A DNA stretch of 64,000 nt from a virus: positions 40,758-104,757 of the IMG/VR virus record IMGVR_UViG_3300010354_000053; one strand, written 5' to 3'. The notes under the pieces were generated by a model. It was not told the DNA's origin. It worked only from the letters and a program-made list of their open reading frames with translations, and searched no databases. The translations under genes and the position numbers were made by a program. Below are positions 1,227 to 61,832 of this stretch, piece after piece (the first letter of the stretch is position 1; each line of letters begins with the position of its first letter).

Positions 1227-1321
1227 TTTTTTCTCCAAAAAAACCTTGACTTTTAATGAAATTAATGCCATTGTCTTATATTAGCAAATCGCTAGTATAA
1301 ATTATACACTTGGAGTCGCCT

Positions 1322-2245: not shown

Positions 2246-2252
2246 GGATTGC

Positions 2253-2705
2253 ATGAAAGTTTTATTTATTTGTACGGGTAACAAGTTTCGTAGTCCAACT
2301 GCGGAACATATTATGAAATGCCTAGCCCCGCATTTAGAAGTTAAATCGGCTGGAACAGCGGAAGGCGCTCATAAAAACTATTTAATGGCCAAAAAAATGC
2401 GTCGTTGTTTAATTGAATTAGGTTATCCTGAGCCCGCAATACGTTCTCAGCATCTGACGGCGGAATTAATGGAGTGGGCAGATATTGTTTTATATATGGC
2501 CCCTACACATTTCAACTATATGTACAAAAATCATGTCCAATTTATACATAAATGCAGGCCGCTCTACACCGTCCTGCCAGACCTTGATTTAAAACGAATT
2601 GAAGACCCTGCTTTTATTAAAAAGCATGAAGATGTTATGGAAGTAACTAAAATTATTGAAGATTCGATTAAAAAAATACTAAACGATGAAGCAAAACTAA
2701 TTTAA
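2253..2705 (+). CDS. Low-molecular-weight protein tyrosine phosphatase/ArsC-family protein
   Basis: VLFICTGNKFRSPTAE P-loop (CX5R), SAGT, WADIVLYM, IEDP. Confidence 0.88.
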   Translation: MKVLFICTGNKFRSPTAEHIMKCLAPHLEVKSAGTAEGAHKNYLMAKKMRRCLIELGYPEPAIRSQHLTAELMEWADIVLYMAPTHFNYMYKNHVQFIHKCRPLYTVLPDLDLKRIEDPAFIKKHEDVMEVTKIIEDSIKKILNDEAKLI

Positions 2706-2935
2706 ACTTCGGAATTACCGATCTTATTCTTTTGACGAGAACCTGTTGGAATAGATGTACCCGGAAGTTTAGGAGCTTCTGGCATTTTTATTTCTGAAGT
2801 TTTAACTGTAGTTTTTTTAGAAGTAGAAGATACAGAACCGTCAAGAATTTTGTACATTCTGTCTTGTACAGTTTCTGCAGGTGTGGATTTAGTCATTTTC
2901 TTGCACAGTTCGACTATTTCTAACAGTTTGTTCAA
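2702..2935 (-). CDS. Hypothetical protein
   Basis: 77-aa ORF in the minus-strand operon. Confidence 0.5.
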   Translation of the reverse strand: MNKLLEIVELCKKMTKSTPAETVQDRMYKILDGSVSSTSKKTTVKTSEIKMPEAPKLPGTSIPTGSRQKNKIGNSEV

Positions 2936-3425
2936 GTTCGGCCTCTGTTACAATCCAAGGTGGTACGCAAACCATTTTATGCTCTATTTTACCATATTGG
3001 ATATTAGATAAAAAAGGCTTCATGAGTTCTTGTTCATCTTGATGGCGATTTTCTTTAATATAACCAATGTTATCGATATTTTTATCCAGTAATTTAGACA
3101 TACAAGCCATACAAGGCTGAACACTCACAATAAATTGGTATTTATGGATATTGATTGTTTGAATCATCTTTTCCAGAAGATCTGTCTCCGCATGGCGAAT
3201 TAAGAATTTTTTAGCAGGATTTTTATCAATATTTAACTCGGCAAGAGCTTTTGAATTTTTTTCAAAAGCAGAAATTATCTTGTTAACGCCATAAGCAATA
3301 ACAGAATTTGTGGATGTATCTACAGCAATTGCGACTACCTGAACTAGAGGATCACTACTTCGTTTTTTAAGAACGTCAAATAGGATCTCGGTACTAACTA
3401 CAGGGAAGGAGCCGTAGACAAACAT
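2889..3425 (-). CDS. dCMP deaminase-like zinc-dependent deaminase
   Basis: HAE and PCxxC (RHAETD...QPCMAC) motifs; KRSSDP..QV.A N-terminal pattern. Confidence 0.8.
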   Translation of the reverse strand: MFVYGSFPVVSTEILFDVLKKRSSDPLVQVVAIAVDTSTNSVIAYGVNKIISAFEKNSKALAELNIDKNPAKKFLIRHAETDLLEKMIQTINIHKYQFIVSVQPCMACMSKLLDKNIDNIGYIKENRHQDEQELMKPFLSNIQYGKIEHKMVCVPPWIVTEAELEQTVRNSRTVQEND

Positions 3426-4036
3426 TCTTTAATTCCTTGTTGTAGTTTTTGTACTACTTGTTCGGGTGAATCTTCAAAATCTACTTTTACGAGAGTAACA
3501 GGAGCGCGACATAAATCCAAGAAATAACCTACGCACATCTTTGCCCTATCCATAAACACTTGAACATTATTGAATGTCAAGTCAGGAAGTCTTTCTTCAA
3601 CAATACCAGCATTTTTTCTTCGCAAAGAAAGACGTTCTCTAATCTTTTCTACAGTAAAATCGTAGTGTACAACAACGACTTTAATGTCTTCTTTATGGCG
3701 ATATTCATTAACCATTTCTACCCAACGAGACGTAGACATAACGCCATCGATAATAACTGTATCTGACAGCTCGAGAGCATCAAAGAAACCTGTTCTAACT
3801 AGCGATGGTGTAGTTATGGAATCTGTGCCAGAATTTTTATTACCAACCAAAACACAATTATCATATTGAACAATACTATATTTCTGCTCAATTGTAGCTC
3901 CCCTGTTGGGCATACGTTTTTTAATAAATTTACCCATTTTAGAAATTTCTTTGCCATCTCCTTGGCAAAAAGTATTTCTGGTGGTGGTTTTGCCGGTTGC
4001 ACCTGCGCCCATTAGAAAAATTGCTACTTTAGTCAT
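3398..4036 (-). CDS. P-loop nucleotide kinase, candidate 5-hmdU DNA kinase
   Basis: Walker A GAGATGKTT at the N-terminus, GTDSI motif, VIIDG Walker B, ERLSLRR lid; two genes from the amino acid:DNA transferase. Confidence 0.72.
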   Translation of the reverse strand: MTKVAIFLMGAGATGKTTTRNTFCQGDGKEISKMGKFIKKRMPNRGATIEQKYSIVQYDNCVLVGNKNSGTDSITTPSLVRTGFFDALELSDTVIIDGVMSTSRWVEMVNEYRHKEDIKVVVVHYDFTVEKIRERLSLRRKNAGIVEERLPDLTFNNVQVFMDRAKMCVGYFLDLCRAPVTLVKVDFEDSPEQVVQKLQQGIKECLSTAPSL

Positions 4037-4403
4037 GAAAGCCCTCAATATACTCTTGATTTGTTTTATGGCATTTAAAACAAATTCTGTTTCCGTTTGG
4101 TGAAAAGAAAACATTGTTGCATTTTAAACAATTTCTATTTTTTGCAATGGCAGAACCGTGTTCTGAAAAAAACTTCTCGTCCGCTTTTCGTAGTTCTTCC
4201 ATAAGCTGTTTGTGTCGCTCTTTACGTCTATTTGACGTTCGCTCTTTATTCTTTTTTATTTTTTCTGTTAAATCAATCCAGTTTAAATTATGTTGAATAA
4301 CATAATTTTGCATGAATGATTCATGATTATCAATGGATGGTACTGGAATATTGAGAGTTTTGCAAAACATTTTTAATGTAATTTTAGTTTCATTAACAAT
4401 CAT
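4029..4403 (-). CDS. Hypothetical protein with C-terminal zinc ribbon
   Basis: CLKC...ICFKC. Confidence 0.55.
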   Translation of the reverse strand: MIVNETKITLKMFCKTLNIPVPSIDNHESFMQNYVIQHNLNWIDLTEKIKKNKERTSNRRKERHKQLMEELRKADEKFFSEHGSAIAKNRNCLKCNNVFFSPNGNRICFKCHKTNQEYIEGFHD

Positions 4404-4413
4404 TACTCTGCCC

Positions 4414-4743
4414 TTATTCTAATTCAGCACCCATGTCTACGATACCTTCTTTCTGCAACAACGAAAGGGCTAACACTCGTTTAGAATCTGCAAAATTTCT
4501 TGTTTCATTGAAGGCACTGCGAAAAGTTTGCAGAACTTCTTGAGCAGCTTTAAATTCCGAATTAGCTTCCATTTCTTTCTTTGCCTTCAAAACATGCGCA
4601 TTCTGTTCTGCAATGATCTGTTTTAGTTTATCGACGTTATAAGTTTTTAGCATTTGCAATTCATCGTAAGAATAATTCTTTACAAACGCTTTTTCAATAT
4701 CACTCAGATGGCTGTACTTATTTGACTTACTCTTCTTTCTCAT
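4414..4743 (-). CDS. Hypothetical coiled-coil protein
   Basis: 109-aa helical ORF in operon. Confidence 0.55.
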   Translation of the reverse strand: MRKKSKSNKYSHLSDIEKAFVKNYSYDELQMLKTYNVDKLKQIIAEQNAHVLKAKKEMEANSEFKAAQEVLQTFRSAFNETRNFADSKRVLALSLLQKEGIVDMGAELE

Positions 4744-5603
4744 TTAACATCCTCCACAAAAAGTAATTGTTTCGTTTTAATGTATGCAGTTTTTTCTTTT
4801 ACTGAAAAATGGTGTTGTAAAAACTTATGATCAAATTCACATTCATCTATTAAATTCCAAAATACGTTATCTGAATACAATTCTGGTTTTTTAAGAACTA
4901 AAAATTCATTAATGTCATGTCCAACTACATAACTCCCCTTGTGCAGTATTTTAGGCACTTTACACAAACAGCTTTCTACTTGACCAATCGGCGCGTTCCA
5001 AATTTTTGATAAATTCCAACCCAAAGCTTCCCATTCTGGGATTATGTCTTTAGTAAATTTTTGATTAATACCATATAGGTAACGAAGTCCAAATACTGGT
5101 CCAGTATTTTTGTTAGGATCAGAGCTTTCGATTCCTAACCCATTAATACGAAAGCTTTTATATCCAAGCGTTTGATCCATGAGTTCACAAGTTTTATAGC
5201 AGGCCCAATCACCAAAATATGGAATAGTCTTGAATAACTCTCTTCCGCTGTTAAAATCTAACTGCTCTGTTTTAAGCGTTGATTCAACTGTTAACCATCT
5301 ATCAAAAGCTTTTTCAAAATTTTCAGTTCGTCGCACTTGTGGTGTTCGACCACGTTCCATTCCAAACTTACTGATTTTTTCAAACATCTGAATGGGTGTT
5401 TTACCTTCAGCAATTCCCCGCATGAATAAAACCATGCTTTCGATAGAATAGTAATATACGTACATGAAAATTGCGGTTTCGGGGTCAAATTTTTCGTGAT
5501 TAATAATTGATTTTAGAAAAGGATAAACAGGGTCAACATCTTGTGTGCGAATTAAAGCTAAGCTAGCCTTCTCGAAATCAGAAAAGTTAAATAGATGTTG
5601 CAT
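4740..5603 (-). CDS. Amino acid:DNA transferase (aGPT-Pplase2/ADDT family)
   Basis: LIRTQDVDPVY, G.ER, FGDWACYK..E, VESCLCK, GSYVVGHDI motifs recalled for this HhH-glycosylase-like family; start uncertain (5603 or 5654). Confidence 0.8.
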   Translation of the reverse strand: MQHLFNFSDFEKASLALIRTQDVDPVYPFLKSIINHEKFDPETAIFMYVYYYSIESMVLFMRGIAEGKTPIQMFEKISKFGMERGRTPQVRRTENFEKAFDRWLTVESTLKTEQLDFNSGRELFKTIPYFGDWACYKTCELMDQTLGYKSFRINGLGIESSDPNKNTGPVFGLRYLYGINQKFTKDIIPEWEALGWNLSKIWNAPIGQVESCLCKVPKILHKGSYVVGHDINEFLVLKKPELYSDNVFWNLIDECEFDHKFLQHHFSVKEKTAYIKTKQLLFVEDVK

Positions 5604-6492
5604 ATAAATACTCTTGAACGCCGTCAGCAAGTTCTTTAATGTATGTTGGAGCATGGCGTAAGCCGTTTGCAGATTTTGGAGTTACATACATACAATTACC
5701 TTCTTGAATAAACGCATGTAAATAGTCTTCCATATAAGCTGGCCTCCAGCCTGTTTTTGGCTCTCCCGTTATTTCAATACTTACCTGGCCATTGGTTACT
5801 TTAGAAATATGCTCAATAATTTTTTGAATTTTATCTTTAATTTCTAAATCTTTTTGTTCTTTTTGATAAATAAAATGAGTACCAAGATAATAGGCATCGG
5901 TAGTGGGTTTTGGATATAGATACGCATTAATAAAACGACCTTCTTTTGCATTTAAACAAAATCTTGGATAACGATCAAATACTTCTCCGCTTGGCTTGCA
6001 CTCTACCGACCATCCCCAACGATAATCGGTAGGTTTATATTTATGAAAACCATTAGCGTGAATAATAAGGCGATTTGTTGGAGTTTTATTTATGCGAGAA
6101 GAAAAGAAAAAATCTTGGGTAAACTGCACAAACGCTTGTACATTAACATGCATTGATTGTTTGTTTAAAACTTTAATATTACCTATAGTTTGCACGTACC
6201 TGAGTTCTTTAGAATTATTATGATGCGGAATGCTTTTTTGGGTATATCCGTAAGGGACAGCTTCTGAAAAAAGAATAATTGGTCTGCGGTCTGTTTGGCT
6301 GAACGATTGTAGCCAAAGGTTATAATTAATTGCATCTAGCTCTTCACCTGATGGGTAAATACACCCAGTACTTGCCTTCCATGCACCGGGTGAATCGTCG
6401 TCTTCCCACGAAAACATAATTTTTCTACTAGTAAGCTCCCAAGCAAGAAGTGAACCAATCAATCCAAAGCCTTTAATATGTACTGTAGACAT
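5587..6492 (-). CDS. FAD-dependent oxidoreductase (DAO/glycine oxidase-like), candidate flavin-dependent lyase
   Basis: N-terminal GFGLIGSLLAWEL Rossmann motif, GAWKASTG, C-terminal GWRP and NGLRHAP. Confidence 0.8.
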   Translation of the reverse strand: MSTVHIKGFGLIGSLLAWELTSRKIMFSWEDDDSPGAWKASTGCIYPSGEELDAINYNLWLQSFSQTDRRPIILFSEAVPYGYTQKSIPHHNNSKELRYVQTIGNIKVLNKQSMHVNVQAFVQFTQDFFFSSRINKTPTNRLIIHANGFHKYKPTDYRWGWSVECKPSGEVFDRYPRFCLNAKEGRFINAYLYPKPTTDAYYLGTHFIYQKEQKDLEIKDKIQKIIEHISKVTNGQVSIEITGEPKTGWRPAYMEDYLHAFIQEGNCMYVTPKSANGLRHAPTYIKELADGVQEYLYATSI

Positions 6493-16436: not shown

Positions 16437-17104
16437 TGATAATGATCACGGACGATATTTATAATAAAAGCATTTATCCGCAGTGCGATTTTAGCATCAT
16501 TGAATTGCCCCTTGAGTCCAAAGACGCTAAAAAAATGTACCAGCAGCTGTATAAAACTCAAAAAAATAACCATATTTCCCTTCAATACAGCAGACTTCCA
16601 AAAAAACTGCGCCTCAAAGCTATGAGCAATGTTTATTTGGGCGATGAAATTGGTTTTAAATTTTATGATTATATAACAATTGTTTCGCAGCAGCCGTGTA
16701 GGCAGCCTCCTAATCATTTATCCCCACTTGGAGAAGTCGGCATCTTATTTACTAAGAACGAAGAGCCGAATACTAAAACAACCAACTGGTTTAATCCCGA
16801 AATTGGCGATTGCACAAACGTTTGGGATGTTAGTTTTCAGCCAAAAGAGGGAAGCGGGCAGACTGTATCAAAAAAATTTGCGTGGGAGATAGGTTATCTT
16901 TTAGCAAATTTAGCGAGTCCGCTCATTTGTAGAAAATTTTTAATACTGGGTCTGCCTGAGTTGTCAATGGCAAGGTTTGCATTACATTCAAACTTGCAAA
17001 TGTATGCAATAACTTCAGATGAGTTTACGGCTAATAAAATTATCAAAGATTATGATAAGGCGTGTAAAAGCGAGGTACAGGATAAATCATGGCAAAAGAA
17101 ATAA
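16406..17104 (+). CDS. Hypothetical protein, possibly a degenerate N6/N4 DNA methyltransferase fold
   Basis: E.GILFTK...TNVWDV...KFAWE...L..LASP pattern; no DPPY or FxGxG motif. Confidence 0.3.
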   Translation: MQITSADGRIVIMITDDIYNKSIYPQCDFSIIELPLESKDAKKMYQQLYKTQKNNHISLQYSRLPKKLRLKAMSNVYLGDEIGFKFYDYITIVSQQPCRQPPNHLSPLGEVGILFTKNEEPNTKTTNWFNPEIGDCTNVWDVSFQPKEGSGQTVSKKFAWEIGYLLANLASPLICRKFLILGLPELSMARFALHSNLQMYAITSDEFTANKIIKDYDKACKSEVQDKSWQKK

Positions 17105-18699
17105 AATATGGACACGAGGCAAGAAATAAAGCCGTTCAAGCATTGGAAGAAATTTCCTATATTGTTGGCAGTACTCTTGGGCCTGGTGGTAAAACTGTTC
17201 TTTTAAGTCGTCGTAATTCTGCCGATGAAATTTCTGTTTCTCATACTAAAGACGGGTTTAATGTATTAAACAGTTTGCGTTATACCGATCCGGTATTTGA
17301 CGCCGTGCATAAACTTTGCCTACAGGCTAGTGCAAACTCGGTTGTGTCATCCGGAGACGGCACAACTTCAACTATTGTAATGGCTGCAGCTTTTGCTAAG
17401 GCTCTGGTCAATAGTGGAAATAATCCACAGGCGGCAGCTCGAAAGTTTCGCAAAGAAATTCAAAATGCTATAGAGGCTATTAAAAGCGAAGCTGTGGCTA
17501 GTGATGAAGCAGTTTATAAAGTGGCGCTTACTAGTGCTAACGGAGATGAGGAGCTTACTAAGTTTGTAATGGATGCAGTATCTCAAAGCTCAGCTTATGG
17601 AACTGTAATTGTAGAAAAGAACCCTATGTCTAAAGATCCTTATAGGATTGATAAGGAATACGGTTACCAAGCTGGCACAGGATACAGCTATTATCTGCCA
17701 TTTGCGCAAAGCATTCGACCAAACTTAGCAAATAATGCCGAGTTTACTCTTAAAAAATGCCATGTATTGCCATATAACGGCGACCTAATGATGATGTCTC
17801 AAGTTAAGCCAATGCTGGAGTCTTTAGCAAGAAATGCAACCGGTGGATGGAACTTATTGATTATTTGTCATCAGATTGCTGAAGATTTGGCTGCAAATTT
17901 GGCATTTTTTAATCGACAAAACCCTAATGCAAAAGTGTTTGTTGTAAGAACCACGCCCTCGGCAGAGCTGAATGGGCAGGTCCAACAACTTAATGATATT
18001 GCCTCGTATACTGGGGCAAAAGTTATGGATGGGGGCAGTTTAACTCACTTGGTGATAGAAGATTTTGGCGACTGCCAGTCAGTTCGGATTGGACCACATA
18101 AAACTTTCATCTTAGGCAAATCTGAACGTAATTGGATTATTGAGCGAGCAGAACAAAATGAAGAATCGGCTCGCCTAGCACCAAGCCAAATGGATCGTGA
18201 CATCATTCATTCCCGTAATGCATCGCTGACTGGTGGTTGTGTCAAGCTTATTATTGGCGGTTCGTTAATGAGTGATCTACAAGAACGAGCCGACCGTGCT
18301 GATGACGCTATTAAAGCTTCGCAAGCTTGTTCACGCTCAGGAGCTCTGCCGGGCTGCGGTGCATCGTACATGCGAGCGGGGCAGCAAGCTAAGGTTTCTG
18401 AATCCGTACAGACAGCGCTTGCGAGCATTCATAATGTGATTATGACAAATTTTGGCGAAACGCCTATGAAGCATTTTGATAAAAATCAAACATATTATAT
18501 TACCGACAATGATATCCAAAAGGTCGAAAACTTTTTAGACCATGGAGTTGCTGATAGTTTTGAAACTATTCGGTCAGTTATCACAAACGCCTTTGAACTA
18601 GGTTTGTTGGTGACAAATTTAGGTGGATATAGCCTTGAAGCAGATTTAGATCAAATGGAGCAGGCGGCAAGGGCTAAAGAAATTTTAAGAGGCGTATAG
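17089..18699 (+). CDS. groEL: Chaperonin GroEL-like
   Basis: MAKEIKYG, TLGPGG, TKDG, GDGTTS, SANGD, DDAIKA, GALPGCG. Confidence 0.92.
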   Translation: MAKEIKYGHEARNKAVQALEEISYIVGSTLGPGGKTVLLSRRNSADEISVSHTKDGFNVLNSLRYTDPVFDAVHKLCLQASANSVVSSGDGTTSTIVMAAAFAKALVNSGNNPQAAARKFRKEIQNAIEAIKSEAVASDEAVYKVALTSANGDEELTKFVMDAVSQSSAYGTVIVEKNPMSKDPYRIDKEYGYQAGTGYSYYLPFAQSIRPNLANNAEFTLKKCHVLPYNGDLMMMSQVKPMLESLARNATGGWNLLIICHQIAEDLAANLAFFNRQNPNAKVFVVRTTPSAELNGQVQQLNDIASYTGAKVMDGGSLTHLVIEDFGDCQSVRIGPHKTFILGKSERNWIIERAEQNEESARLAPSQMDRDIIHSRNASLTGGCVKLIIGGSLMSDLQERADRADDAIKASQACSRSGALPGCGASYMRAGQQAKVSESVQTALASIHNVIMTNFGETPMKHFDKNQTYYITDNDIQKVENFLDHGVADSFETIRSVITNAFELGLLVTNLGGYSLEADLDQMEQAARAKEILRGV

Positions 18700-39483: not shown

Positions 39484-41502
39484 TTATTTAGGCTTAGAAG
39501 CTTCTTCTAGTAATTGTTTTAAGGATTTACCCATTGATTTTTTATTTTTTGATTCTAAACTAACGGCGTGTTTTTCTTCGGCATGTTTGAGTTTTTGCTC
39601 ATGTTGCTCTTTTTTTATTTCCATCATCTGTTGATGCTTTTCTTGCATTTGTTTTAATTCTTCTTCATTCATGTTTTGTTCATTCTCAGCAAGATCTTGT
39701 TCTCCTTGCTGCTCGCCTTGCTGCTGCTGTTCAGCTTGTTGTTGTTGAGCCTGCATTTGTGATTCCATTTGATGCGCTTGTAGCTCTAGTTGTGCTGTTT
39801 GTAACTTCATTTGTTCTGCTTGCATTGCCGGGATTTTTCCCTTTTGCTTTTGATAAGCATCGTTGATGGCTGGATCGATAAAAAAATCGAGTGATTGGTT
39901 TTTTAATGCATCTTTTTCTTTAAAGAAATAATGCCTTATTTCGGACATCTTCATGTATTTAGCAACTGATTGATGAAAAATTGGAGATGTGGGGACGTCA
40001 CCTCCGAACGGGAATACATCAAGTCTTTCGCTGTCAGACCAAATTTTGCCAAATGTACCAGAAGTTTGTAATTCTTCCTTATAAATAGCTAAATCGGCTT
40101 CTTTTGTATTTTGCCCTAATCCAATAGGCTCAATTCTCAAAATATCTTTAGCTTGAGGAAATGAATCTGCTATTAGATCATTTAATAAATCAAATAATGT
40201 TTCGGTTAATTGTCGAAGCCCGCGTTCTTCGCCTTGTACAATTTGTTCTTGTTTACCTGTGTCTCCCATAGTTGGTTTAGCGGAATCTAAGGCACCAAAG
40301 CCAATTTCTTGGGGTGAAATCTGAAAAGCGCCACAAACAATCATGAGAACGCGTTGGTATAAATTATTAAATTCTAGATCTTTTGCGGTAATGTTAAGAG
40401 GAACAAACTCTACATCAATTGGGCCTGCAACAATTGGAATTGTTGCGGAATTATCATTTCTAGCAACATAGTTGCTGAAAAGTTTTCTAAAAGCTTCTGC
40501 TTGTTCTGGACTTACCACACCAGTTTCTTGGGTTTTTAAATTAATAATACCTTTGGTTGCCAAGCCTTTAGTAAATGAGTTTTGTAGATATTGTTGAGCA
40601 TAAAAATGCATTGACACTGCATAAAACGCTTTTTCAATGGGGGCCATTGGATAGCCGTCTAAGTTTTCGTGAGCCTGTTTTTGAAGATAAGTCACGATTA
40701 AATCGTCTTCAGTGAAGAATGCAACATTTTTTCCGTCAATTCTTTGAACATATGCAATCGGACGACGACCTTTTTCAATATTTTTATAATCTTTTAAATC
40801 GTCTTCAGATTGATCTGCGACGTCTTTATCATTTCCAGATAAAGTTACATCTGCTTGGTCTAAAACTCTAAAAACTGTTTCTACGGGGACTGGTCTGAAC
40901 AGAACGGGCACACCTTCTTTTGATCTAATTATTTGAGTTGCACATCTTCCATAAACTAAAAGATTTCTAGCCTGAGCCCCTAAAAATTCTGCTAAATTAC
41001 ATGTTTTAAACGTAGTATCTGAACCTTGAAACACATGATCAAGAATTGTGCGATTGGTGGTTCCACAATTCAAAATATATTTGAAAATAATATTAGAAAG
41101 TTCTGTGCGAAATTTAATTTCTTCAGCTTTTTCTGTTTCATTTATTAAATTATCAATTTGTACTGGAATAACTTCTCTTAAAACAAACCCTCTATCATAT
41201 TTATTGGCAGATTTTCTGCCAAATGCCATAGATTGATTGGCACGAGTGTCGATAATTAAAGAAATAATTGAATCATAGTAGGCTAATTCCCGCAACTCTT
41301 TATCAGACATTCGCCCCTTTTTCTCAAAGAGGCTGTTAGAACTTGCATTTCTAGATTCAAGACTAAAAACAGCTTTACTCTGTTCAATTTTATCTTTAAT
41401 CAATTCGTTATTTTCTAACGGTTTAACTGATTTGGATAAATCGTCTACGTAAAAAGAGACTTGTCCCTGTTTATCTTTTTTGAAGAAATCGAAAAGTCCC
41501 AT
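39484..41502 (-). CDS. Portal protein
   Basis: IIDTRANQ, GYPMAPIE, F..G...KGII, KDLEF, ICGAFQISPQEIGF, GLRQL motifs of SPO1/K-type portals; Gln-rich C-terminal extension. Confidence 0.85.
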   Translation of the reverse strand: MGLFDFFKKDKQGQVSFYVDDLSKSVKPLENNELIKDKIEQSKAVFSLESRNASSNSLFEKKGRMSDKELRELAYYDSIISLIIDTRANQSMAFGRKSANKYDRGFVLREVIPVQIDNLINETEKAEEIKFRTELSNIIFKYILNCGTTNRTILDHVFQGSDTTFKTCNLAEFLGAQARNLLVYGRCATQIIRSKEGVPVLFRPVPVETVFRVLDQADVTLSGNDKDVADQSEDDLKDYKNIEKGRRPIAYVQRIDGKNVAFFTEDDLIVTYLQKQAHENLDGYPMAPIEKAFYAVSMHFYAQQYLQNSFTKGLATKGIINLKTQETGVVSPEQAEAFRKLFSNYVARNDNSATIPIVAGPIDVEFVPLNITAKDLEFNNLYQRVLMIVCGAFQISPQEIGFGALDSAKPTMGDTGKQEQIVQGEERGLRQLTETLFDLLNDLIADSFPQAKDILRIEPIGLGQNTKEADLAIYKEELQTSGTFGKIWSDSERLDVFPFGGDVPTSPIFHQSVAKYMKMSEIRHYFFKEKDALKNQSLDFFIDPAINDAYQKQKGKIPAMQAEQMKLQTAQLELQAHQMESQMQAQQQQAEQQQQGEQQGEQDLAENEQNMNEEELKQMQEKHQQMMEIKKEQHEQKLKHAEEKHAVSLESKNKKSMGKSLKQLLEEASKPK

Positions 41503-41513
41503 TCAAACACCTA

Positions 41514-42500
41514 TCATTCAATAGTACAGCTTTGTACCGAGACTGTAATTGGCTCAGAATTTTTATTCGTTGCGGCAACGCTAATTAAGTTAGTTGTTGC
41601 TGAAAACAATGCAGAACCCGTATTTCCATTAATAACTGGAAATTGATTCCCTGATGCATCAAAATCTAAATATATCGTACTATCTGCCTCAATACAGACA
41701 AAATTTATTAATCTTGAATAGAACAAAAATGGCGTATTGACTCCGCTAATTTTTGTTTCTGGAATAACTTGTGGATTATAAAAAATAATATCTCTATCTG
41801 TAACATCAATTACCTGAAAATCCTTTGATTTATTTTCGGAGTTGAATGCAGAGTTTGCTGCAATTCGGATTTTATCGCCAATTTGTACGCCTTCAGAAGA
41901 AAAAAATCTAATTACTGAATCAAAATTAGATCCTAAAGAAATATTAACTTCCTCAGAAATCATGCCATTATCACGAACTATTACCGAATTTCCTTCTATT
42001 GATAATACTGTATAGCCGTGACCAGTTGATGATGGATTAAGAGGAGATGCAAAGCTGGCGTCATTCTCTTGTAAATAAATAATATCTCCATTTAGAACAG
42101 AACTCAAATTTACGCCACCACCAGATAATGTAATTTTAATTGCCGTGGGGCTCATTCTTTGAGCGGAATACAGGGTTGTGGCAGAACACAAAATAGAACG
42201 GCCTATCCTAAAATTTGGAGGATTCCCAATACCAGTCCAACGCAGCCTACTAAGATCTACACCAATTTTTGGTAGAGAAATTTCAAATTCTGATGAATTC
42301 AAATTAGTGGCCACTGATCTAGCTGTTGATTGTAATAGAACAGTCTGGCCAGGTAAAATAGATCGTGTTTCACTAATCGGATTAGTAACAGAAAGTCCTT
42401 CCGACGAGGAAAGAAGATCAAAATTGCGTTGTTTTGGACTTTGTGACGCATTAGCGTCGTTATAACAAAGCCTTGAAATATAAAAGTTTAAAAGAGCCAT
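41514..42500 (-). CDS. Probable virion structural protein
   Basis: Beta-rich 328 aa between terminase and portal. Confidence 0.5.
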   Translation of the reverse strand: MALLNFYISRLCYNDANASQSPKQRNFDLLSSSEGLSVTNPISETRSILPGQTVLLQSTARSVATNLNSSEFEISLPKIGVDLSRLRWTGIGNPPNFRIGRSILCSATTLYSAQRMSPTAIKITLSGGGVNLSSVLNGDIIYLQENDASFASPLNPSSTGHGYTVLSIEGNSVIVRDNGMISEEVNISLGSNFDSVIRFFSSEGVQIGDKIRIAANSAFNSENKSKDFQVIDVTDRDIIFYNPQVIPETKISGVNTPFLFYSRLINFVCIEADSTIYLDFDASGNQFPVINGNTGSALFSATTNLISVAATNKNSEPITVSVQSCTIE

Positions 42501-42508
42501 GATTGCCC

Positions 42509-44428
42509 CTAGAATAAAATAGTTGCACTACCCGATTTTAACATTTTTTCTGCGTCTTCTTCGTTCTTTTTCTTAATATCTATATTGTATTCAGAAGCAT
42601 AATGAATACGCAATGCTTCTTGCATGCCTTCTACTGTAGTAAAACTAGGCTTTTTAGTATAATCAAACTGATCAGCCTGCGAAGCCTGAATTACCGATGC
42701 ATTGCTGGTTATAAATGGATCGATTGCATATCGAAGAGCGTCAGGACCATGGGTGAAATCGTCATCAGCAAATCGCGAGTAATCATACCCCATTGCCCCC
42801 TTAGCGTATGTCCAGTTTTCCATGCATTTAATTAAAAACAAATTTTTGGGGTCATCTAATATGATGAAATGCGCCTGTTGTCTCATTGCGTTCCATAATT
42901 TTGAACGAATCCATGATACGCCAGTATCAATAGTTAATGGTTTTTCTCCCCTAGCAGGCATATTCATGCTCCCCGCTACAGAAGTTGAAGATTTGTCGGC
43001 TGTGTCTGGACACAGGAGGTCAAATCCGTACTTAAGATAAATGTTTTCTTTCACAAAAGCAAGCCAGTCCGGATTTGCGTAACCGGTTGAATGTTCTGTA
43101 TGGAGAACAAGCATTTTATCGTCTGATTTTTTATATGCTATCAAAATAGCTACTGCTGGGTCAATGAATCCAAAGTCAACACCACAATGCAATCGCCAGC
43201 CATTTGCTCTTAGTTCTCTAATTAATTCATCTTTTGAAATATCACGTATGTTGCCAAATCGATCTGTAGGAAAGGTACTGAAGGCAAAGTTCCAACATTC
43301 TTGGACTGTCTTTACATGAATATTACGATTGAATTTATTGAACACAATACCCGAAGACTCAGGTTTTAAGTTAAGAATCTGTGCGTTAATCTTATCTGGA
43401 TCGCCGGCATTGAGCAGAGTATTCTTAACAAAGCCTAAGTCGCGTAGCATTTTTGATTTAGATTGTTGTTTAACTGATTTTGTTCGACAAATAGAAAATA
43501 CAGGACATGTTTTGCAGCCTTCATATGCCAATATAGATGAATATACAGCCTTAGATTCCGGATTAAGAGCATTAAATGCATTATTTGGCAATACTTCTAG
43601 CGTCTCGGGATGGACATGGAGCATACTTTGCGGTAAATCGGGCTTATGGCGCTCGGGTGGACATGTTTGCATCCAATCTACAATAGACCATTTGTGTAGT
43701 CTGATGCCTGAATTTGGCATATCTGCTTCGTCAATTTTTTGCTGGATTGGTCCAGAACCAGATTTTCTGGACGACAAGTAAATAAAGATTGGCGGTTTAC
43801 CAGAGCGGTCAGGGTCAGCAATGAAAGTTGCCTCAGAAAGAATATCTTTATCAATGAGGTCTAGCTCATCGAAAATGAGGCATGATGCACGTTGGGCGTT
43901 TGCAGACTTTTTAGTTGATACAACGACTTGTAGTTTGCTATATCCAACGGGACGATGAGGTGATGGTGGTAATCTATTAAGCTCTTTTATTCGTTTACTA
44001 TCAGTTTTTGCGAAATTAGAAATAATCGGCAAAGCGAGGTGCTTGTCCAAATAACGAATTGCGGCCAAAGATTGGTCTAAAATTGCTGCCATGTGGACTA
44101 TATCTCTGGCAAAATGAACCATAAGTAAGAATTCAATAATAGAAGATGCTAATGTTTTTGCTGAGTTACGGCTTGCAGCTACAACGAACGTTGTTCTGTT
44201 GGGATCGCCGTCTTTAGCGGCAGAATAAACGTCCCAGATAAAATCCATTGGATTAGAATTACTATTATCATCTACGGTGCAGTCCGGTAAATCAATATCT
44301 AAAAATGTCTTAATCCACTGCTTAAGCTGAGCTTTACTTTCACAAACAGCAAAAAATTGCTCTTCATACAGCTGATTTAACGCTGCATTAAGCTGATTTT
44401 CATTTGTTAATTGCTGTTTTTTATTCAT
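42509..44428 (-). CDS. Terminase large subunit
   Basis: AASRNSAKT Walker A variant, LIFDELD Walker B, GVDFGFIDP nuclease motif, HGPDALRY. Confidence 0.88.
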   Translation of the reverse strand: MNKKQQLTNENQLNAALNQLYEEQFFAVCESKAQLKQWIKTFLDIDLPDCTVDDNSNSNPMDFIWDVYSAAKDGDPNRTTFVVAASRNSAKTLASSIIEFLLMVHFARDIVHMAAILDQSLAAIRYLDKHLALPIISNFAKTDSKRIKELNRLPPSPHRPVGYSKLQVVVSTKKSANAQRASCLIFDELDLIDKDILSEATFIADPDRSGKPPIFIYLSSRKSGSGPIQQKIDEADMPNSGIRLHKWSIVDWMQTCPPERHKPDLPQSMLHVHPETLEVLPNNAFNALNPESKAVYSSILAYEGCKTCPVFSICRTKSVKQQSKSKMLRDLGFVKNTLLNAGDPDKINAQILNLKPESSGIVFNKFNRNIHVKTVQECWNFAFSTFPTDRFGNIRDISKDELIRELRANGWRLHCGVDFGFIDPAVAILIAYKKSDDKMLVLHTEHSTGYANPDWLAFVKENIYLKYGFDLLCPDTADKSSTSVAGSMNMPARGEKPLTIDTGVSWIRSKLWNAMRQQAHFIILDDPKNLFLIKCMENWTYAKGAMGYDYSRFADDDFTHGPDALRYAIDPFITSNASVIQASQADQFDYTKKPSFTTVEGMQEALRIHYASEYNIDIKKKNEEDAEKMLKSGSATILF

Positions 44429-45348
44429 AGCCCATAATACTTGCGGTTTCTTCCTTTTCCTTCAAGGAGACTGCAATATTTTCTAAACTCGCAAGCAATT
44501 CCTTCAATATTACAAGTTGTGATTAGTATTTTTTTATCATCCTTAGCTAAATAAGGAAAACTATCAACTGGTTGGTGTTTCATCAGAGTGAAGGCAACGT
44601 CTTCAGGTTTAGCTTTAGGATTGAGTATCTTACAAGTAGGGGCTGCTCCGCGACCCATTTCTAAATATTTAAACTCATCAATATATTCGGGAAATTGATA
44701 ACCAAAATCCATCATAATTTCTGTCATATGGAATGGATTTTTAAACCCTAGAATACTATGAATGCTATTTGTAAGATACTGTATGCTGTGTTTTTTGTTT
44801 GACATCAACAAATCATAAATAGGATGAACAAGTTCTGGTAATTTTTCATACAAAAATTCTTCGCGATTTTTAGCCCCAATAATTGACAATCCTGCTTGCG
44901 GAAACAAATAGGCTGTATTAAATTTAGGACCTTCTATTGAAGAAAACCTAGTTCTGGATTCTAAATTTTCAGATTTATCTAGGGAAATATTACCAGTAAT
45001 TTGAAGAGTGCTAGGCATATTAATATATCTAGCAAACATTATATTAAGTAATGCTAGTTTTTTATCGTGAAGGCACGGTTGTAGCCACTCGTGAATCCAC
45101 AATGAAACCTTATCAAGTTCTCTATAACAATTAGTGAAATAATTTCTGTTTAAAATTACATCTTCAGTCCATGGTCTAGGTTGTCCACTATCCTTAAGAT
45201 GAAAGATTTTCATTCTTTCGATTGCAAAATCCCAGTACCTTTGCTCAATCGCTGAATCTATTGCAACTTCTCGACCGTTCATCCATCCAAATTCTTGGTA
45301 TTGGTCAAAATGTTTATATAAATTTAAAGCTTTAGCTTTTGCACTCAT
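44425..45348 (-). CDS. aGPT-Pplase1 / 5-hmdU DNA kinase helical-domain family protein
   Basis: YWDFAIERMKIF...G.PRPWTEDVIL...FTNCYRELDKVS, FARYIN, GRGA, IEGIACEFRKY motifs. Confidence 0.85.
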   Translation of the reverse strand: MSAKAKALNLYKHFDQYQEFGWMNGREVAIDSAIEQRYWDFAIERMKIFHLKDSGQPRPWTEDVILNRNYFTNCYRELDKVSLWIHEWLQPCLHDKKLALLNIMFARYINMPSTLQITGNISLDKSENLESRTRFSSIEGPKFNTAYLFPQAGLSIIGAKNREEFLYEKLPELVHPIYDLLMSNKKHSIQYLTNSIHSILGFKNPFHMTEIMMDFGYQFPEYIDEFKYLEMGRGAAPTCKILNPKAKPEDVAFTLMKHQPVDSFPYLAKDDKKILITTCNIEGIACEFRKYCSLLEGKGRNRKYYGL

Positions 45349-46049
45349 CTAGTTTTAACCTTTTCCAACAATTCTAACAGCTCTAATCTATCTTTATCAG
45401 ATTTTTCTTCAATTAAAATGGGATCTATTGGTTGTGCTTCAATCGTTTCAACTTTATTTTTTGCAGGATTATTTAAATTCGCAACGTTCACATTAACCAC
45501 GGTGCCACTTGCCGACTTACCTTCAGCTTCTTTAGTTTGTAAAGATTGCAACATATCGAGTAGAGTCATAAAATCTCTATAGTTTTTTGGTATGAGCGGA
45601 CAGTTTTTTGCCTGTGTTGGATCTTTAATAACTTCGGCTAGTTGCTGCTTGTATAGTGCGGCTGTTGCAACAATTGCGTCGGTCACCAAATCGATGGCGG
45701 CAGCGTCCGCCCTTGTAACCTTTTCGCCTGCACGAACACTCGTGACCAATTTTTTTCGATCTTGCCATTTATAAAAAATACCGGTGTATAGCAAAATCCC
45801 CAAGGGAATGTTTAGTTTGTTAGCAATTTCTTCCCAACTTGCTCCCATATAGTAAAAATAAAAAGCGGATTGCTCTACCTGCGAGGGTAATCGACTACCA
45901 ATATTTTTAGCTGTTGTTTTTGCAAGTTCAAACTCCTCTACAGTCATATCTACTGGTCGTTCATCAAAACAACTTAATGGGTCTTCTCGTTTAATAAATG
46001 AAGATTCAGAATAGTTTGGTGTGATTGCATTTTTATTATTCTTTTTCAC
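45345..46049 (-). CDS. Putative terminase small subunit
   Basis: HTH GASWEEIANKLNIP...KW..RK, helical body, upstream of terL; GTG start with GAGG RBS. Confidence 0.55.
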   Translation of the reverse strand: MKKNNKNAITPNYSESSFIKREDPLSCFDERPVDMTVEEFELAKTTAKNIGSRLPSQVEQSAFYFYYMGASWEEIANKLNIPLGILLYTGIFYKWQDRKKLVTSVRAGEKVTRADAAAIDLVTDAIVATAALYKQQLAEVIKDPTQAKNCPLIPKNYRDFMTLLDMLQSLQTKEAEGKSASGTVVNVNVANLNNPAKNKVETIEAQPIDPILIEEKSDKDRLELLELLEKVKTR

Positions 46050-46091: not shown

Positions 46092-46133
46092 AAAATAAAA
46101 TGGCTCTGAAGACTTTTTGTCCCCAGAGCCATT
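46092..46133 (-). terminator. Rho-independent terminator after tail sheath gene
   Basis: AATGGCTCTG/CAGAGCCATT inverted repeat with T-tract on the minus strand. Confidence 0.7.
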
Positions 46134-46160: not shown

Positions 46161-49013
46161 TTAGGCAGTTACGCCGGTTGCTCGACGAGCGAGAACATCA
46201 ACCGTAATAAATTCAACTGCTTCCACAGGAAATACGCTAATTGTAACTTTGTACGTATTGCCATCAAGAATAATTGAATCAACGCTGAACTGGCGCAATG
46301 CTCCTTGGCCAACAAAACTCAATAAGATATCTTGCACTGACTTAGATACTACAGAAGGAGAAACGTCTGTCGTTCTTTCGCCAATAAAATTATCTAGAGT
46401 TGAGCGTAGTGTTTTTACGACTTCATCGACTACAAACTGAACATTTACACGTTCGTAGTACCATCCTTTTGGATCATTTTGCCTTGAACGGGTTGATAAA
46501 TCTGGAGATTCCATACGAACACCAAAACCTGTAACTGATTTAAGAACAATCAGTCCAGCTTCGATTGCTTCGTCTAATTCTTTTGTATCTGCATCAAAGT
46601 CTGGCACAAATACGTCAGAATAGAGGCTTAGATCTCCAATATGTTTTACATTTGAAACTTGGAAACTTTTTCTAAGAAGGGAAGTTCCAAGGATTGCCTG
46701 AGCGCGGCCCGCAGCAAGAGCACAAGCAAGCATCCATGGTAAAAACCACTGAGCATCGCCATTAGAGTTAATTGAACGAACCTGTTGAAATGCCATTTGA
46801 ACACGTTCGCTACTAAGTTCCGCGGCTTTTTGTTTAGCTACTGAAAATGAGCTATGGATACTGCACAACGCAAACCGTTCACGTTGAAATTGAATGCTGC
46901 TAGCAGTTTGAACATGGCCTCTAACGGCAGAATTAACTGCGTCGATTGAATATTGACTTGCTTGATCGGTTAAGCCATCTTCAATATCTTTAGTAGAATC
47001 ACGACTAAAGAGAGGAATGACCTGTGATACATCAATTTTCAGCGCAGCGTCGAGTGCTGATTGAATAGAAACTCCGGATGTTGCGCCGATTGAACCCCCT
47101 TCCAAGAATTTAGGAGAAGAAGTCACATCTGGTAGGCCAACAAGAGATGGAGATGCTGAATTCTCAACAAAGCTAATAAGTCCAAAGTTATTATCAATCA
47201 AAGATTTAAAGTCAAAATAGTCTGATTTTAAAAGACCGGGAAATGAATTAACTTCATGGCCGGTACAAATACCAACTGCCTCAACCTGATCAAGAACAGA
47301 TGGGCTAAGACTGCGCCATCTCGCATCTGGAACTCTTGCTGAATAACCAGTTTTTGTACTGATGAATGCAATCAAATCACCGATGGTGTTGTATTTTGAT
47401 AACATTACATCAAGATTAACACCAGAACCACCTGTAACAGAAGTTTTGAGCTTTTTGTCTTTTGTGATAGTAACTGAAGCTGTTGTACCCGCATAACCTA
47501 GTTCAAGAACAATACGACCACCAACAGGTGTGTTAGGAAATTGCGCCCCATCTGACAAACGAGATGCTAAAATTCTTACTCGTTTTTCAGATGCAGATCG
47601 CAAGATTACTGGTCCTACAACAGAACTAATGCCGTTTTCTCTGATATAAAAGGGCATAGTTTGACTATCAAGAGCAGTTGCTGCAACAGATACAGGATTA
47701 TTTACTGAAGAACCGGTAATGCATTTTACGGCTTTGATAACCGCCGCGCCGGCAGAAGTCACAAGCCACGCACCGACGTTTTTAGAACCTGCGCCTTTTA
47801 AAACACTATCAGAAGGGACAACAAGCAATTCACCAATCTTTGGTGCTACCGCAAATGCACCACTGCTAAGAGCGAACGTTCCTTCAGATCCATCTACAGT
47901 TAATGAAACAGAAGCGGAGAGTGATACGTTGGAAGAAACGGCTGCCTTTTTAGCAGACGTCGCCATGAATTTAGAAGGAGCCCAAATTTCTCCGCCCGGA
48001 GCATAGATCTCTGCACACGCGGCTGCACCATTTTTTGTAGTTTCTGTAACTTCAAAAGAAACAGGGGCAAAAACCATCATTTCTGCGGTAGCTGTTGCAG
48101 ATTGGTCTCCAGAAACCGCACCAGAAACTGCAACACACTCTTGAATTGTTCTTTGTCCCGCTGAAACGCAGGCGTCTAAACGATCTAGAACCATTGAAGA
48201 AGAAGTAATTGTTTGGATTTCGTAGTTACCACAATTTTCTTCGCCAGCGCCGGAAAGAACAGATGCTACTGGAATATAGACAATGTCTCCAGCAACAATA
48301 GAAGATGGGAAGGCTCCAGCAGATCTTGAAATTGTAATTTTTGTTGGGTGGTCTACGTCTGGAGAAAGGGACAAGGTTTGTCCGTCAACAAGAGCTAATG
48401 ATTTTAATTCACCACCAGAAGCAGAAAACCCAACTGCGGAAGCATTAAAAATTGCTACTACTTCTGCAACAGTCGCTTCTGGGGGAGCCAGAAATTCTTG
48501 CTCAGCGCCGCCGGATACACGAACTTTATATGCACCACCACTTGTACCCATTAGAGCTCTAGCGGTTGATTTAGGTTTAATCTCGGCAGAAGCTTGTTCG
48601 ATTTTTGCAGAAATTGCATTGCCATCTTCACCGTATTCAGCGGCAGCAATCGTCGCATAAAGGCTAGCTCCACGCATGATATTCATAGAAGCTAGGCCGG
48701 ATTCATTTGTTTTGTAAACAAAAAGGCTGTTAAGAGATCCGGTGAATGCTGGACTAGCTTGATTTGAAAACAGCATTCTTGCCGCATCAACAATTGGACC
48801 AGAACCGTAATAGTTTTTAACTGATTGATAATCCGTGAAAAAAGTACGGCCGAGGTCAAGAAGAGACCCAGGAACACCTTTTGAGGCTTCACCGATAATT
48901 AAAATATTGCGCGGGCCAGGAGCAACATTCGCTAGGTTATCTTCTACCTTTACAGAAGAATAAACACCAGGAACTACAACTCTGGTTCCGTTAATCACAG
49001 CAGATAAAGTCAT
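46161..49013 (-). CDS. Contractile tail sheath protein
   Basis: N-terminal PGVYS...IIGEA..G.P, LEGGSIG, C-terminal LDNFIGE...VFPVEAVEFITV. Confidence 0.88.
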   Translation of the reverse strand: MTLSAVINGTRVVVPGVYSSVKVEDNLANVAPGPRNILIIGEASKGVPGSLLDLGRTFFTDYQSVKNYYGSGPIVDAARMLFSNQASPAFTGSLNSLFVYKTNESGLASMNIMRGASLYATIAAAEYGEDGNAISAKIEQASAEIKPKSTARALMGTSGGAYKVRVSGGAEQEFLAPPEATVAEVVAIFNASAVGFSASGGELKSLALVDGQTLSLSPDVDHPTKITISRSAGAFPSSIVAGDIVYIPVASVLSGAGEENCGNYEIQTITSSSMVLDRLDACVSAGQRTIQECVAVSGAVSGDQSATATAEMMVFAPVSFEVTETTKNGAAACAEIYAPGGEIWAPSKFMATSAKKAAVSSNVSLSASVSLTVDGSEGTFALSSGAFAVAPKIGELLVVPSDSVLKGAGSKNVGAWLVTSAGAAVIKAVKCITGSSVNNPVSVAATALDSQTMPFYIRENGISSVVGPVILRSASEKRVRILASRLSDGAQFPNTPVGGRIVLELGYAGTTASVTITKDKKLKTSVTGGSGVNLDVMLSKYNTIGDLIAFISTKTGYSARVPDARWRSLSPSVLDQVEAVGICTGHEVNSFPGLLKSDYFDFKSLIDNNFGLISFVENSASPSLVGLPDVTSSPKFLEGGSIGATSGVSIQSALDAALKIDVSQVIPLFSRDSTKDIEDGLTDQASQYSIDAVNSAVRGHVQTASSIQFQRERFALCSIHSSFSVAKQKAAELSSERVQMAFQQVRSINSNGDAQWFLPWMLACALAAGRAQAILGTSLLRKSFQVSNVKHIGDLSLYSDVFVPDFDADTKELDEAIEAGLIVLKSVTGFGVRMESPDLSTRSRQNDPKGWYYERVNVQFVVDEVVKTLRSTLDNFIGERTTDVSPSVVSKSVQDILLSFVGQGALRQFSVDSIILDGNTYKVTISVFPVEAVEFITVDVLARRATGVTA

Positions 49014-60776: not shown

Positions 60777-61832
60777 GTGAAAAGAATAAGTAAGGTGGAA
60801 AGAATGAGTGCAGATTTACTGATTGGAGCCCCAGACTTATTTAAAGAATATCTTCAGTCTAACCCCTATTTATTTGAGGCGGGGGCTAGTAAATCTATTA
60901 AAATGCACGAACTCATGCCGTATAACAAAACTGGGATTTTACCAGAACTAGAGCTACAGATTAGGCAACTCCATAAGAAGTATCATCCGAATATAATCAC
61001 GCCAAGCACTAAAATCGTTGTGTCAAATGGCGCAACACATATGTTAATGGCTCTACTCGGCTTGGCCGCCGATTCTTATTCTTCTGTTTATGTGCCAAAA
61101 CCATATTGGTTTAGAATTCCAGATATGGCAAAAATGCAGCATGCTAATATTACAGATCAGATTCAAACAGAAAGTCAAGTGCAACTAATTACATATCCAA
61201 ATAATCCCGATGGAAAAATTTTAAGTAATTTTGGAAGTTGGCCAAACGTATGGTATGACGCTGTTTATCACTGGCCATGGTATTTCAGAAGTCAATCAGA
61301 TTGGGAAAATAATCCGCTTCCTTCAATACCAGAAATTGCTATCTTTAGCCTCTCAAAATGCACAGGGCATTGTGGCTCTCGAATTGGATGGGCGCTAATT
61401 AATAGCGATCATCATTTAGCTAACTATTTAAATTCGTATGTTGAATATGATACGAGCGGAGTGTCAGTAGAGGCTCAGGCTCGTGCCGCAACGGTATTAG
61501 AAGTGTTTATGGCAAAAGATATCGGAAGTGAATATAAAAAACTTTTAGATGCAAGAAAAGATGAGCTACGCGAAGTGTTAAAAAAATTTTCCGATATTCA
61601 TGGAATAGAATTCAGTAATAAAAATTTTATGATTGATAATGGTATGTTCGGTTGGATTAACGATGAACACAATGCATTTTTGTATTCTGAAATCAATTTC
61701 ATGGACGGTCGAAAATGTGGGGCCGATAAAAAAGGGTTTTTACGTATAAACCTATGCGCCTCGTCAGAAAATTGGAATGAGGCTATGTTTAGATTAAACA
61801 TGTACCTATTTAATTTATGTGAGTCAATATGA
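60777..61832 (+). CDS. PLP-dependent enzyme, alliinase/tryptophan aminotransferase (TAA1/TAR)-like
   Basis: ITYPNNPDG, YDAVYHWPWY, FSLSKCTGHCGSRIGWALI (PLP lysine), GVSVEAQ.RAA.VL, G.KCGADKK.FLRINL. Confidence 0.85.
   Translation: MKRISKVERMSADLLIGAPDLFKEYLQSNPYLFEAGASKSIKMHELMPYNKTGILPELELQIRQLHKKYHPNIITPSTKIVVSNGATHMLMALLGLAADSYSSVYVPKPYWFRIPDMAKMQHANITDQIQTESQVQLITYPNNPDGKILSNFGSWPNVWYDAVYHWPWYFRSQSDWENNPLPSIPEIAIFSLSKCTGHCGSRIGWALINSDHHLANYLNSYVEYDTSGVSVEAQARAATVLEVFMAKDIGSEYKKLLDARKDELREVLKKFSDIHGIEFSNKNFMIDNGMFGWINDEHNAFLYSEINFMDGRKCGADKKGFLRINLCASSENWNEAMFRLNMYLFNLCESI

Follow-up and report, generated by a model that had tools for sequence, protein, structure and literature searches.

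Clade 1 of the aGPT-Pplase proteins has been found in thymidine-hypermodifying phages ever since it was first defined, yet its members are dispensable in reconstituted pathways. Known clade-1 proteins include M6 gp55, ViI gp160, PhiW-14 gp72 and the C-terminal half of SP10 gp186 (PMC5889632); that source lists PhiW-14 gp72, SP10 gp186C and ViI gp160 as aG/PT-PPlase1 and describes SP10 gp186 as a kinase at its N-terminus joined to aG/PT-PPlase1 at its C-terminus. No member of the clade is credited with a demonstrated activity (PMC8989533, PMC5889632), and M6 gp55 is reported as dispensable in the reconstituted M6 reaction (PMC8989533). Here we describe a clade-1 gene in an atypical position, in a 64,000-nucleotide stretch of DNA (the window) from an uncultured large tailed phage. 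The window spans positions 40,758 to 104,757 of IMG/VR record IMGVR_UViG_3300010354_000053, and makes up the 3' part (64 kb) of a viral contig of 104.7 kb whose completeness is estimated at 64%. The gene, on the minus strand at 44425-45348, encodes a standalone protein of 307 residues belonging to PF18723 (HMUDK_hel, aGPT-Pplase clade 1), and it is lodged between a likely gene for the small terminase subunit (terS) and the gene for the large subunit (terL).

Clade 2 of the aGPT-Pplases, the amino-acid:DNA transferases (AADTs), is exemplified by PaMx11 gp46/PUGT, M6 gp51 and ViI gp247. PaMx11 gp46 is the glycinyltransferase of 5-phosphomethyldeoxyuridine (5-PmdU), and a fold like that of the helix-hairpin-helix (HhH) glycosylases is common to it and the window protein. 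Glu243 and Thr244 of gp46 are metal ligands, and the catalytic Cys247 attacks the base at C6 (PMC11472151). The reading that we favour, at a probability of about 55%, is that the PF18723 gene of the window is a selected, probably catalytic member of a thymidine-hypermodification system, acquired a single time behind the likely terS and expressed along with the genes for packaging.

Position of the PF18723 gene

The genes of the locus run, on the minus strand, in the order sheath-like gene, 234-residue open reading frame (ORF), 307-residue ORF, 639-residue ORF, 328-residue ORF and portal gene. The sequence-only reading, made from the letters of the window and a list of its ORFs, had pointed to ATGA overlaps at both ends of the PF18723 gene, and the coordinates confirm them: ATGA at 45348-45345 and at 44428-44425 produces a stop/start overlap of 4 nt at each junction. 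As such the overlaps are unremarkable here, since a crude gene call of the window places 4-nt overlaps at 10 of 73 same-strand junctions. That reading had also put the gene some 38 kb from the other modification genes; measured from the 3' end of the gene (44425), the distance is 37.9 kb to the near edge of the modification cluster (6492) and 40.4 kb to the start of the kinase gene (4036). A nucleotide search with the locus found no match among phage records.

Family, fold and conserved residues

The 307-residue protein matches PF18723 with 77.2 bits against a cut-off of 25, its residues 36-293 aligning with model positions 5-273 of 281, and it matches phrog_2396 with an E-value of 3.6e-25. 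A Walker A motif was looked for and is absent, in agreement with the earlier observation that this ORF has no P-loop. Its AlphaFold2 (AF2) model is of high predicted quality (mean predicted local distance difference test score, pLDDT, 94; predicted template modelling score 0.91). In the VIA structural search, the best match is PaMx11 gp46/PUGT (8z2n; Z 9.4, root-mean-square deviation 4.2 Å over 215 aligned residues), followed by the queuine-salvage DUF2419 enzyme 7u5a (Z 8.8) and by archaeal 8-oxoguanine glycosylases at Z ≤8.1, with AGOG 7ou3 at 8.1; the alignments with 8z2n, 7u5a and 7ou3 each extend over more than 200 residues. Z values of this size are moderate for a helical protein. All of the top 17 rows (Z 9.4-4.7) are nevertheless HhH glycosylase-type folds, with unrelated rows appearing below them at Z ≤3.8.

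An alignment of 27 diverse family members, drawn from terS-linked, thymidylate synthase (ThyA)-linked, portal-linked and kinase-fused forms, reveals that R76, L78, D79, C286, E287 and K290 are invariant and that position 282 is either Glu or Gln. The protein therefore carries, near its C-terminus, an [E/Q]-x3-Cys motif with the same spacing as Glu243 to Cys247 in gp46. A feature peculiar to clade 1 is the Glu that immediately follows the Cys. We infer that clade 1 probably retains a catalytic cysteine. Profile comparison was less informative: a PDB profile search with the alignment of PF18723 proteins was empty at E ≤ 1, and an hhalign comparison of the clade-1 alignment with the phage's own AADT-like protein was uninformative. 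The AADT-like fold and the invariant Cys-Glu pair favour an enzyme over a passive DNA-binding helper, and so count against the earlier suggestion that the protein is the DNA-binding partner of the P-loop kinase encoded at 3398-4036.

The gene is a real member of the family and is under purifying selection. Compared with close relatives, it has a dN/dS of 0.03-0.06, on a par with terL, and synonymous sites are near saturation.

Conservation of the gene order

Related loci were sought in IMG/VR by pattern scans in which the queries were TerL, the 307-residue protein and alignments of the 307-residue protein and of the TerS candidate. Nine sublineages were compared, namely the window, L003, L005, L008, L009, L110, L111, L112 and L113. 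Identity to the window falls to about 50% for TerS and is 47-57% for TerL and 36-41% for the PF18723 protein. The order sheath, terS, PF18723 gene and, further on, terL is kept in all nine, so that the conservation in relatives on which the sequence-only reading had laid weight does hold. The terS and PF18723 genes overlap by 4 nt (ATGA or GTGA) in every case.

The junction on the other side, between the PF18723 gene and terL, is variable. The two genes overlap by 4 nt in the window and in L009, and are separated by 9 nt in L110 and by 131 nt in L112. The interval in L005 is 198 nt and contains a decayed N-terminal fragment of a 2-oxoglutarate (2OG) oxygenase (remnant at L005:4477-4755), while a complete 2OG-Fe(II) oxygenase occupies the junction in L003 (4344-4994), L008 (4345-4998) and others; this oxygenase matches PF13640 at an E-value of about 1e-17 and, weakly, Tet_JBP at 5e-4. 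Two more distant relatives have other contents: the L111 junction holds a 145-residue ORF of unknown function (L111:6676-7113), and that of L113 an RNA ligase with PF09414 and a PHA02142 OB domain (L113:6631-7785). Taken with the constant terS overlap, this variability indicates that the interval upstream of terL collects cargo and that the terS-PF18723 pair is fixed. The terL genes themselves have unusual structures in some sublineages. The L112 gene (6745-9741) is a 998-residue ORF in which a Hint/LAGLIDADG insertion, an intein, follows residue ~98 of TerL, and terL is in three pieces lying 0.4-1.1 kb apart in L111 (7301-10462) and L113 (7902-10610), which suggests inteins or introns.

A maximum-likelihood tree unites the nine terS-linked proteins in a single group (support 100/100), from which it follows that the gene arrived once. 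The stem of this group is long, at 2.72 changes per column. The terS-linked position is thus the derived state of one phage group and has a single origin.

For comparison we assembled 21 other viral records bearing PF18723 genes, which fall into about 20 sequence clusters. A thymidylate-synthase-like gene is present in 16 of these 21, and in 12 of the 16 no more than 2.5 kb separates it from the PF18723 gene. The Terminase_6N search of the 21 records gave no usable matches, and phrog_12 portals were detected in three. The pattern recurs among cultured phages: the PF18723 gene is found beside a deoxyuridine monophosphate (dUMP) hydroxymethylase gene in SH-Ab 15599 and PhiJL001, beside thyA in Goe26 and beside the kinase gene in M6-like phages. 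A further arrangement occurs in an unrelated lineage (L057-L064, together with L101 and L103), in which the PF18723 gene is followed by a 104-residue gene and then by the portal gene. Here the locus L059:5866-8917 has a 336-residue PF18723 gene directly after a helicase/exonuclease block, that is, at a module boundary.

Terminase genes and operon

The 639-residue protein (42509-44428, minus strand) is the large terminase subunit, as the sequence-only reading had it. Its residues 25-421 match the TerL of Myxococcus phage Mx1 with 33% identity and an E-value of 2e-62, and its C-terminal third (residues ~400-620) matches TerL proteins of Enterococcus, Marinitoga and Streptococcus phages. The match to phrog_6672 is weak (E 7.7e-4), and a Pfam search of this protein returned none; the assignment is confirmed by homology.

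Mx1 (OR576727.2) is the closest cultured relative of the window for TerL, the 328-residue protein and the portal. Its genes are ordered 209-residue gene, terL, 331-residue gene, portal, which is the order in the window minus the PF18723 gene. Mx1 has no PF18723 gene at this slot and gave no hit when searched for one, and it is also without a ThyA-like gene. The conserved 328-residue gene of the window (41514-42500, minus strand), between terL and the portal gene, is homologous to the Mx1 331-residue gene in the same place (29% identity, E 3e-22) and is syntenic in all relatives. The portal gene itself (39484-41502, minus strand) was identified by matches to PF04860 (E 2.2e-15) and phrog_12 (E 3.1e-19).

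The assignment of the 234-residue gene (45345-46049, minus strand; GTG start preceded by GAGG) as terS is less secure. The protein is without a match in Pfam, PHROGs, PDB profiles or, by tblastn, phage records, and a PHROG scan of 21 homologues of the TerS candidate retrieved weak DNA-binding families and no TerS family. It is similar to the Mx1 gene directly upstream of Mx1 terL (BLASTP E 3e-6; hhalign probability 63%, E 6.9e-5 over 125 columns), although in the window the PF18723 gene separates it from terL whereas its Mx1 homologue abuts terL. The AF2 model (pLDDT 61) has helices at 37-107 (pLDDT 82-88), long helices at 113-171, a disordered stretch at 172-216 and a C-terminal helix at 218-233. 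Structural searches with this model were of little help: Foldseek against the PDB returned nothing at E ≤ 0.001 and only weak rows at E ≥ 0.36, including sigma region 4 and the phage protein 2ao9, and a wide VIA search retrieved generic helical hairpins only. A feature match in the ESM Atlas to T5_Terminase_small (0.93) is a weak lead. The modelled architecture fits a small terminase, without proving one. In sum, position, architecture and a weak Mx1 homologue favour the earlier terS label, which lacks a family match, and we judge the protein to be TerS with odds that are somewhat better than even.

Between the sheath-like gene (46161-49013, minus strand) and the likely terS lies a hairpin resembling an intrinsic terminator, with 15 pairs and a T run (46099..46133, minus strand). 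It delimits the packaging operon on the upstream side, and each of the eight relatives examined carries a T-run hairpin in the corresponding position before terS. Within the stretch from terS through the portal gene, the hairpin scan found only short terminator-like hairpins of 5-7 pairs. A scan for sigma-70-type promoters gave no signal above shuffled sequences, and a motif like the A/T-rich box that precedes terS, sought as a recurring late-promoter element, turned up only at that site itself. Because the PF18723 gene lies inside one terminator-bounded structural operon, late co-expression may fairly be expected, as had been proposed for a late modification step; the coupling to packaging that was proposed with it is unsupported.

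The distant modification cluster and the kinase link

A candidate thymidine-hypermodification cluster occupies positions 1310-6492 of the window. It includes a P-loop kinase gene of the 5-hydroxymethyldeoxyuridine (5-hmdU) DNA kinase (5-HMUDK) family at 3398-4036 (minus strand), encoding 212 residues from the Met at 4036, with the longest ORF extending to 4114. The kinase Walker A sequence is GAGATGKTT, and the protein matches phrog_800 positions 12-166 at an E-value of 5.8e-5. Adjoining it is a gene similar to deoxycytidine monophosphate deaminases (2889-3425, minus strand; PF00383, E 3.5e-7). The AADT-like protein (aGPT-Pplase clade 2; 4740-5654, minus strand) gives a sub-threshold match to PF18724 (E 0.055) and has orthologues in relatives at E-values of 1.5e-4 to 2e-3; its E-S-C-L-C motif has the spacing of Glu243, Thr244 and Cys247 in PaMx11 gp46. 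A possible oxidoreductase dependent on flavin adenine dinucleotide (FAD; 5587-6492, minus strand) matches PF01266 DAO below the cut-off (E 0.019) and in the N-terminal dinucleotide-binding region only. The cluster also holds an amidoligase-like gene (PF12224, E 7e-4) and a low-molecular-weight phosphatase gene (PF01451, E 5.5e-15). A PaMx11-like pathway with weakly assigned parts is plausible.

The kinase family is small: out of 1.84 billion representatives, 70 proved to be relatives at E ≤ 0.001, with fusions to ADDT (P0107), to an enzyme dependent on pyridoxal phosphate (PLP; P0127) and to GNAT (P0074, P0079). Lee et al. reported 5-HMUDK joined to an enzyme that depends on PLP, and a three-part fusion that also includes a clade-2 aGPT-Pplase (PMC8989533). 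Two family members, P0078 and P0096, are fused to a dual-specificity phosphatase domain (PF00782), a combination unmentioned in the portions of the literature consulted; the low-molecular-weight phosphatase of the window is two genes from the kinase.

The kinase is linked to clade 1 by a gene fusion in Bacillus phage Goe26. Residues 32-166 of the 636-residue protein Goe26_01450 match the kinase family (hhalign 88.9%, E 2.4e-6), and its residues 284-599 match the PF18723 alignment (99.7%, E 6e-27), with the C-E motif included. This fusion was reached by tblastn; a direct search for longer fused relatives of the 307-residue protein found none, which is weak evidence. Phages thus differ in how the kinase and clade-1 domains are arranged: some have them in one protein, others have them next to each other, and in the window 40 kb lies between them. 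Prediction of a complex between the kinase and the PF18723 protein scored 0.01, which gives no verdict and is not evidence for or against binding.

PHROG 800 is itself labelled 'terminase small subunit', yet its positions 12-166 match the kinase and its positions 325-473 match the PF18723 protein L059:5866-6876. The same label is attached to many GenBank homologues of 5-hmdU DNA kinases (ViI-like and M6-like) and to some clade-1 genes. The phrog_800 label looks like a propagated misannotation.

Complete relatives give a wider view of the pathway. G025, the record that holds L112, is 187 kb long, has terminal repeats and is rated complete; it has terS-PF18723-terL and a ThyA-like gene. With G001 as the positive control for the kinase and AADT searches, and within the limits of sensitivity that apply, G025 gave no match to the kinase profile, AAA_33, the AADT-like protein of the window or PF18724. 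Its sole phrog_800 match is a 257-residue protein in which the common part is the Walker A region only. The apparent absence of kinase and AADT from G025 weakens the idea that the terS-linked protein serves the kinase, and leaves room for an autonomous role. The link to the kinase drawn in the sequence-only reading has gained from the Rosetta-stone fusions in Goe26 and SP10 gp186 and lost from G025. The thymidylate-synthase-like gene is present in both G001 and G025. The G001 match (G001:C1:149357-149878) holds two in-frame TAA codons and could be an interrupted or broken gene.

Two other genes of the window were noted in passing. An alliinase/aminotransferase-like PLP enzyme is encoded separately from the cluster, at 60777-61832 (PF04864, E 5.6e-30), and a chaperonin-like gene of the Cpn60/TCP-1 family lies at 17089-18699 (PF00118, E 1.1e-28).

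Interpretation

In the reading that we favour, the PF18723 protein would be a base-flipping protein of the HhH glycosylase type, whose conserved Cys-Glu site resembles the one in amino-acid:DNA transferases, and would most likely be an enzyme working on bases derived from 5-hmdU in completed phage DNA. It would belong to a thymidine-hypermodification system together with the kinase, AADT-like and FAD-like proteins encoded some 40 kb away. In an ancestor of this phage group, the gene would have been inserted a single time directly behind the likely terS and inherited vertically since. It would share a transcript, from the terminator-bounded structural operon, with terS, terL and the portal gene, and its translation would probably be coupled to that of terS, so that the protein would appear late, together with the packaging machinery. 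Any benefit of this timing is, like the substrate and the catalysis, conjectural.

Several points weigh against this reading. As set out above, clade 1 is without a demonstrated activity and M6 gp55 is dispensable in the reconstitution (PMC8989533), which also makes an overstatement of the earlier assertion that this family acts in post-replicative modification. That C286 corresponds to Cys247 of gp46 is drawn from motif spacing and the overall range of the structural alignment, and the AADT-like and FAD-like assignments lie below Pfam cut-offs. The pathway context is not constant, G025 having kept the terS-linked gene with neither kinase nor AADT detectable, and a thymidylate-synthase-like gene was looked for and not found in this 64%-complete contig. 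Co-transcription and late expression of the gene we infer purely from gene order. Finally, gene order in structural modules is generally conserved, and persistence of the arrangement is consequently no proof that the position was selected.

Other explanations for the placement need to be set against these. The region upstream of terL could be an insertion hot spot of which the PF18723 gene is the oldest cargo, its position being meaningless beyond expression. That the slot contains an oxygenase, a remnant, an RNA ligase, a 145-residue ORF or nothing across the relatives favours such an accident of history, as do the invasion of terL itself by an intein in L112 and its division into pieces in L111 and L113, the ordinariness of 4-nt overlaps in this genome and the lack of the gene in Mx1. 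Unlike the other cargo, however, the PF18723 gene has stayed in place, with no loss or displacement, throughout nine sublineages whose synonymous divergence is saturated, and it is under strong purifying selection; we regard an accident as unlikely. A direct coupling to packaging, whereby the protein, bound to TerS or TerL, would be active at the packaging complex, either to check or finish modification while the DNA is threaded or to help the terminase recognise or cut hypermodified DNA, is in our view rather improbable. It would account for a terS overlap that is constant in nine sublineages next to a junction that has turned over at least four times, and the long stem branch is compatible with a change of role. 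Retention of the gene in G025 with no detectable kinase or AADT, and the second, unrelated lineage in which a PF18723 gene lies two genes upstream of the portal gene, point the same way. There is also statistical precedent from other pathways for modification genes near terminase genes, terminases co-occurring with 19% of phage 5mYOX modification pathways (PMC13229309). Against this, any interaction is hypothetical and the identity of terS is only that of a candidate, while 12 of the 16 ThyA-carrying lineages keep their PF18723 gene close to the ThyA-like gene, in a replication or nucleotide module. Moreover, the gene of the portal-linked lineage merely sits at the boundary of replication and structural modules, and Mx1 packages its DNA with homologous TerS-like and TerL proteins and no PF18723 gene. 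The mechanistic coupling to DNA packaging advanced in the sequence-only reading is thus unsupported, the terL-side junction being a variable slot for unrelated cargo.

Two further explanations concern what the protein does. It might be a non-catalytic subunit of the kinase encoded at 3398-4036, binding DNA and flipping bases in the manner of the C-terminal half of SP10 gp186. The data give mixed support to such a split kinase: Goe26_01450 carries both halves, SP10 gp186 is a fusion of kinase and aG/PT-PPlase1 (PMC5889632), the two genes are adjacent in M6-like phages, and phrog_800 matches the kinase in its N-terminal part and the L059 PF18723 protein in its C-terminal part, although the window's own PF18723 protein matched phrog_2396 only. 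However, M6 gp54, ViI gp67 and PaMx11 gp49 phosphorylate 5-hmdU DNA with no clade-1 protein present (PMC8989533), and the invariant Cys-Glu, kept even in the fused form, would point to a chemistry of the protein's own. Since, in addition, G025 has the PF18723 gene and no detectable kinase, and the two genes of the window are 40 kb apart in different modules, we hold this explanation to be quite doubtful. Equally improbable in our estimation is an autonomous late 'finishing' enzyme, whose Cys-Glu site would convert leftover 5-hmdU or 5-PmdU in the DNA just before packaging. Such an enzyme would need neither kinase nor AADT, because a complete relative appears to be without both, and the final state could be plain thymidine. 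How 5-hmdU in DNA becomes thymidine is, by the statement of PMC5889632, still unexplained; if the finishing enzyme were real, the clade-1 aGPT-Pplases would be the missing enzyme of the step from 5-hmdU to thymidine, and placement behind terS would be a timing device.

Comparison with known systems

By itself, the terS-PF18723-terL arrangement is an observation on gene order. This phage group is nonetheless an unusual handle on clade 1, its gene lying away from the kinase and having long been fixed behind the likely terS. These features, together with the retention of the gene in G025, bring two questions within reach of testing: whether clade-1 proteins act as enzymes by themselves, and whether they do so in time with packaging.

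The window protein resembles the known clade-1 proteins in its Pfam family, in its length class and in the YRELD and C-E-x-x-K motifs, and the genome resembles those of clade-1 phages in having genes for both a 5-HMUDK-family kinase and an AADT-like protein. The setting of the gene is different. The genes of those known proteins lie in a nucleotide-metabolism or replication module, beside the kinase or dUMP hydroxymethylase gene, whereas the gene of the window overlaps the likely terS in a packaging operon, 40 kb from the kinase, and encodes a protein whose clade stands on a long separate branch.

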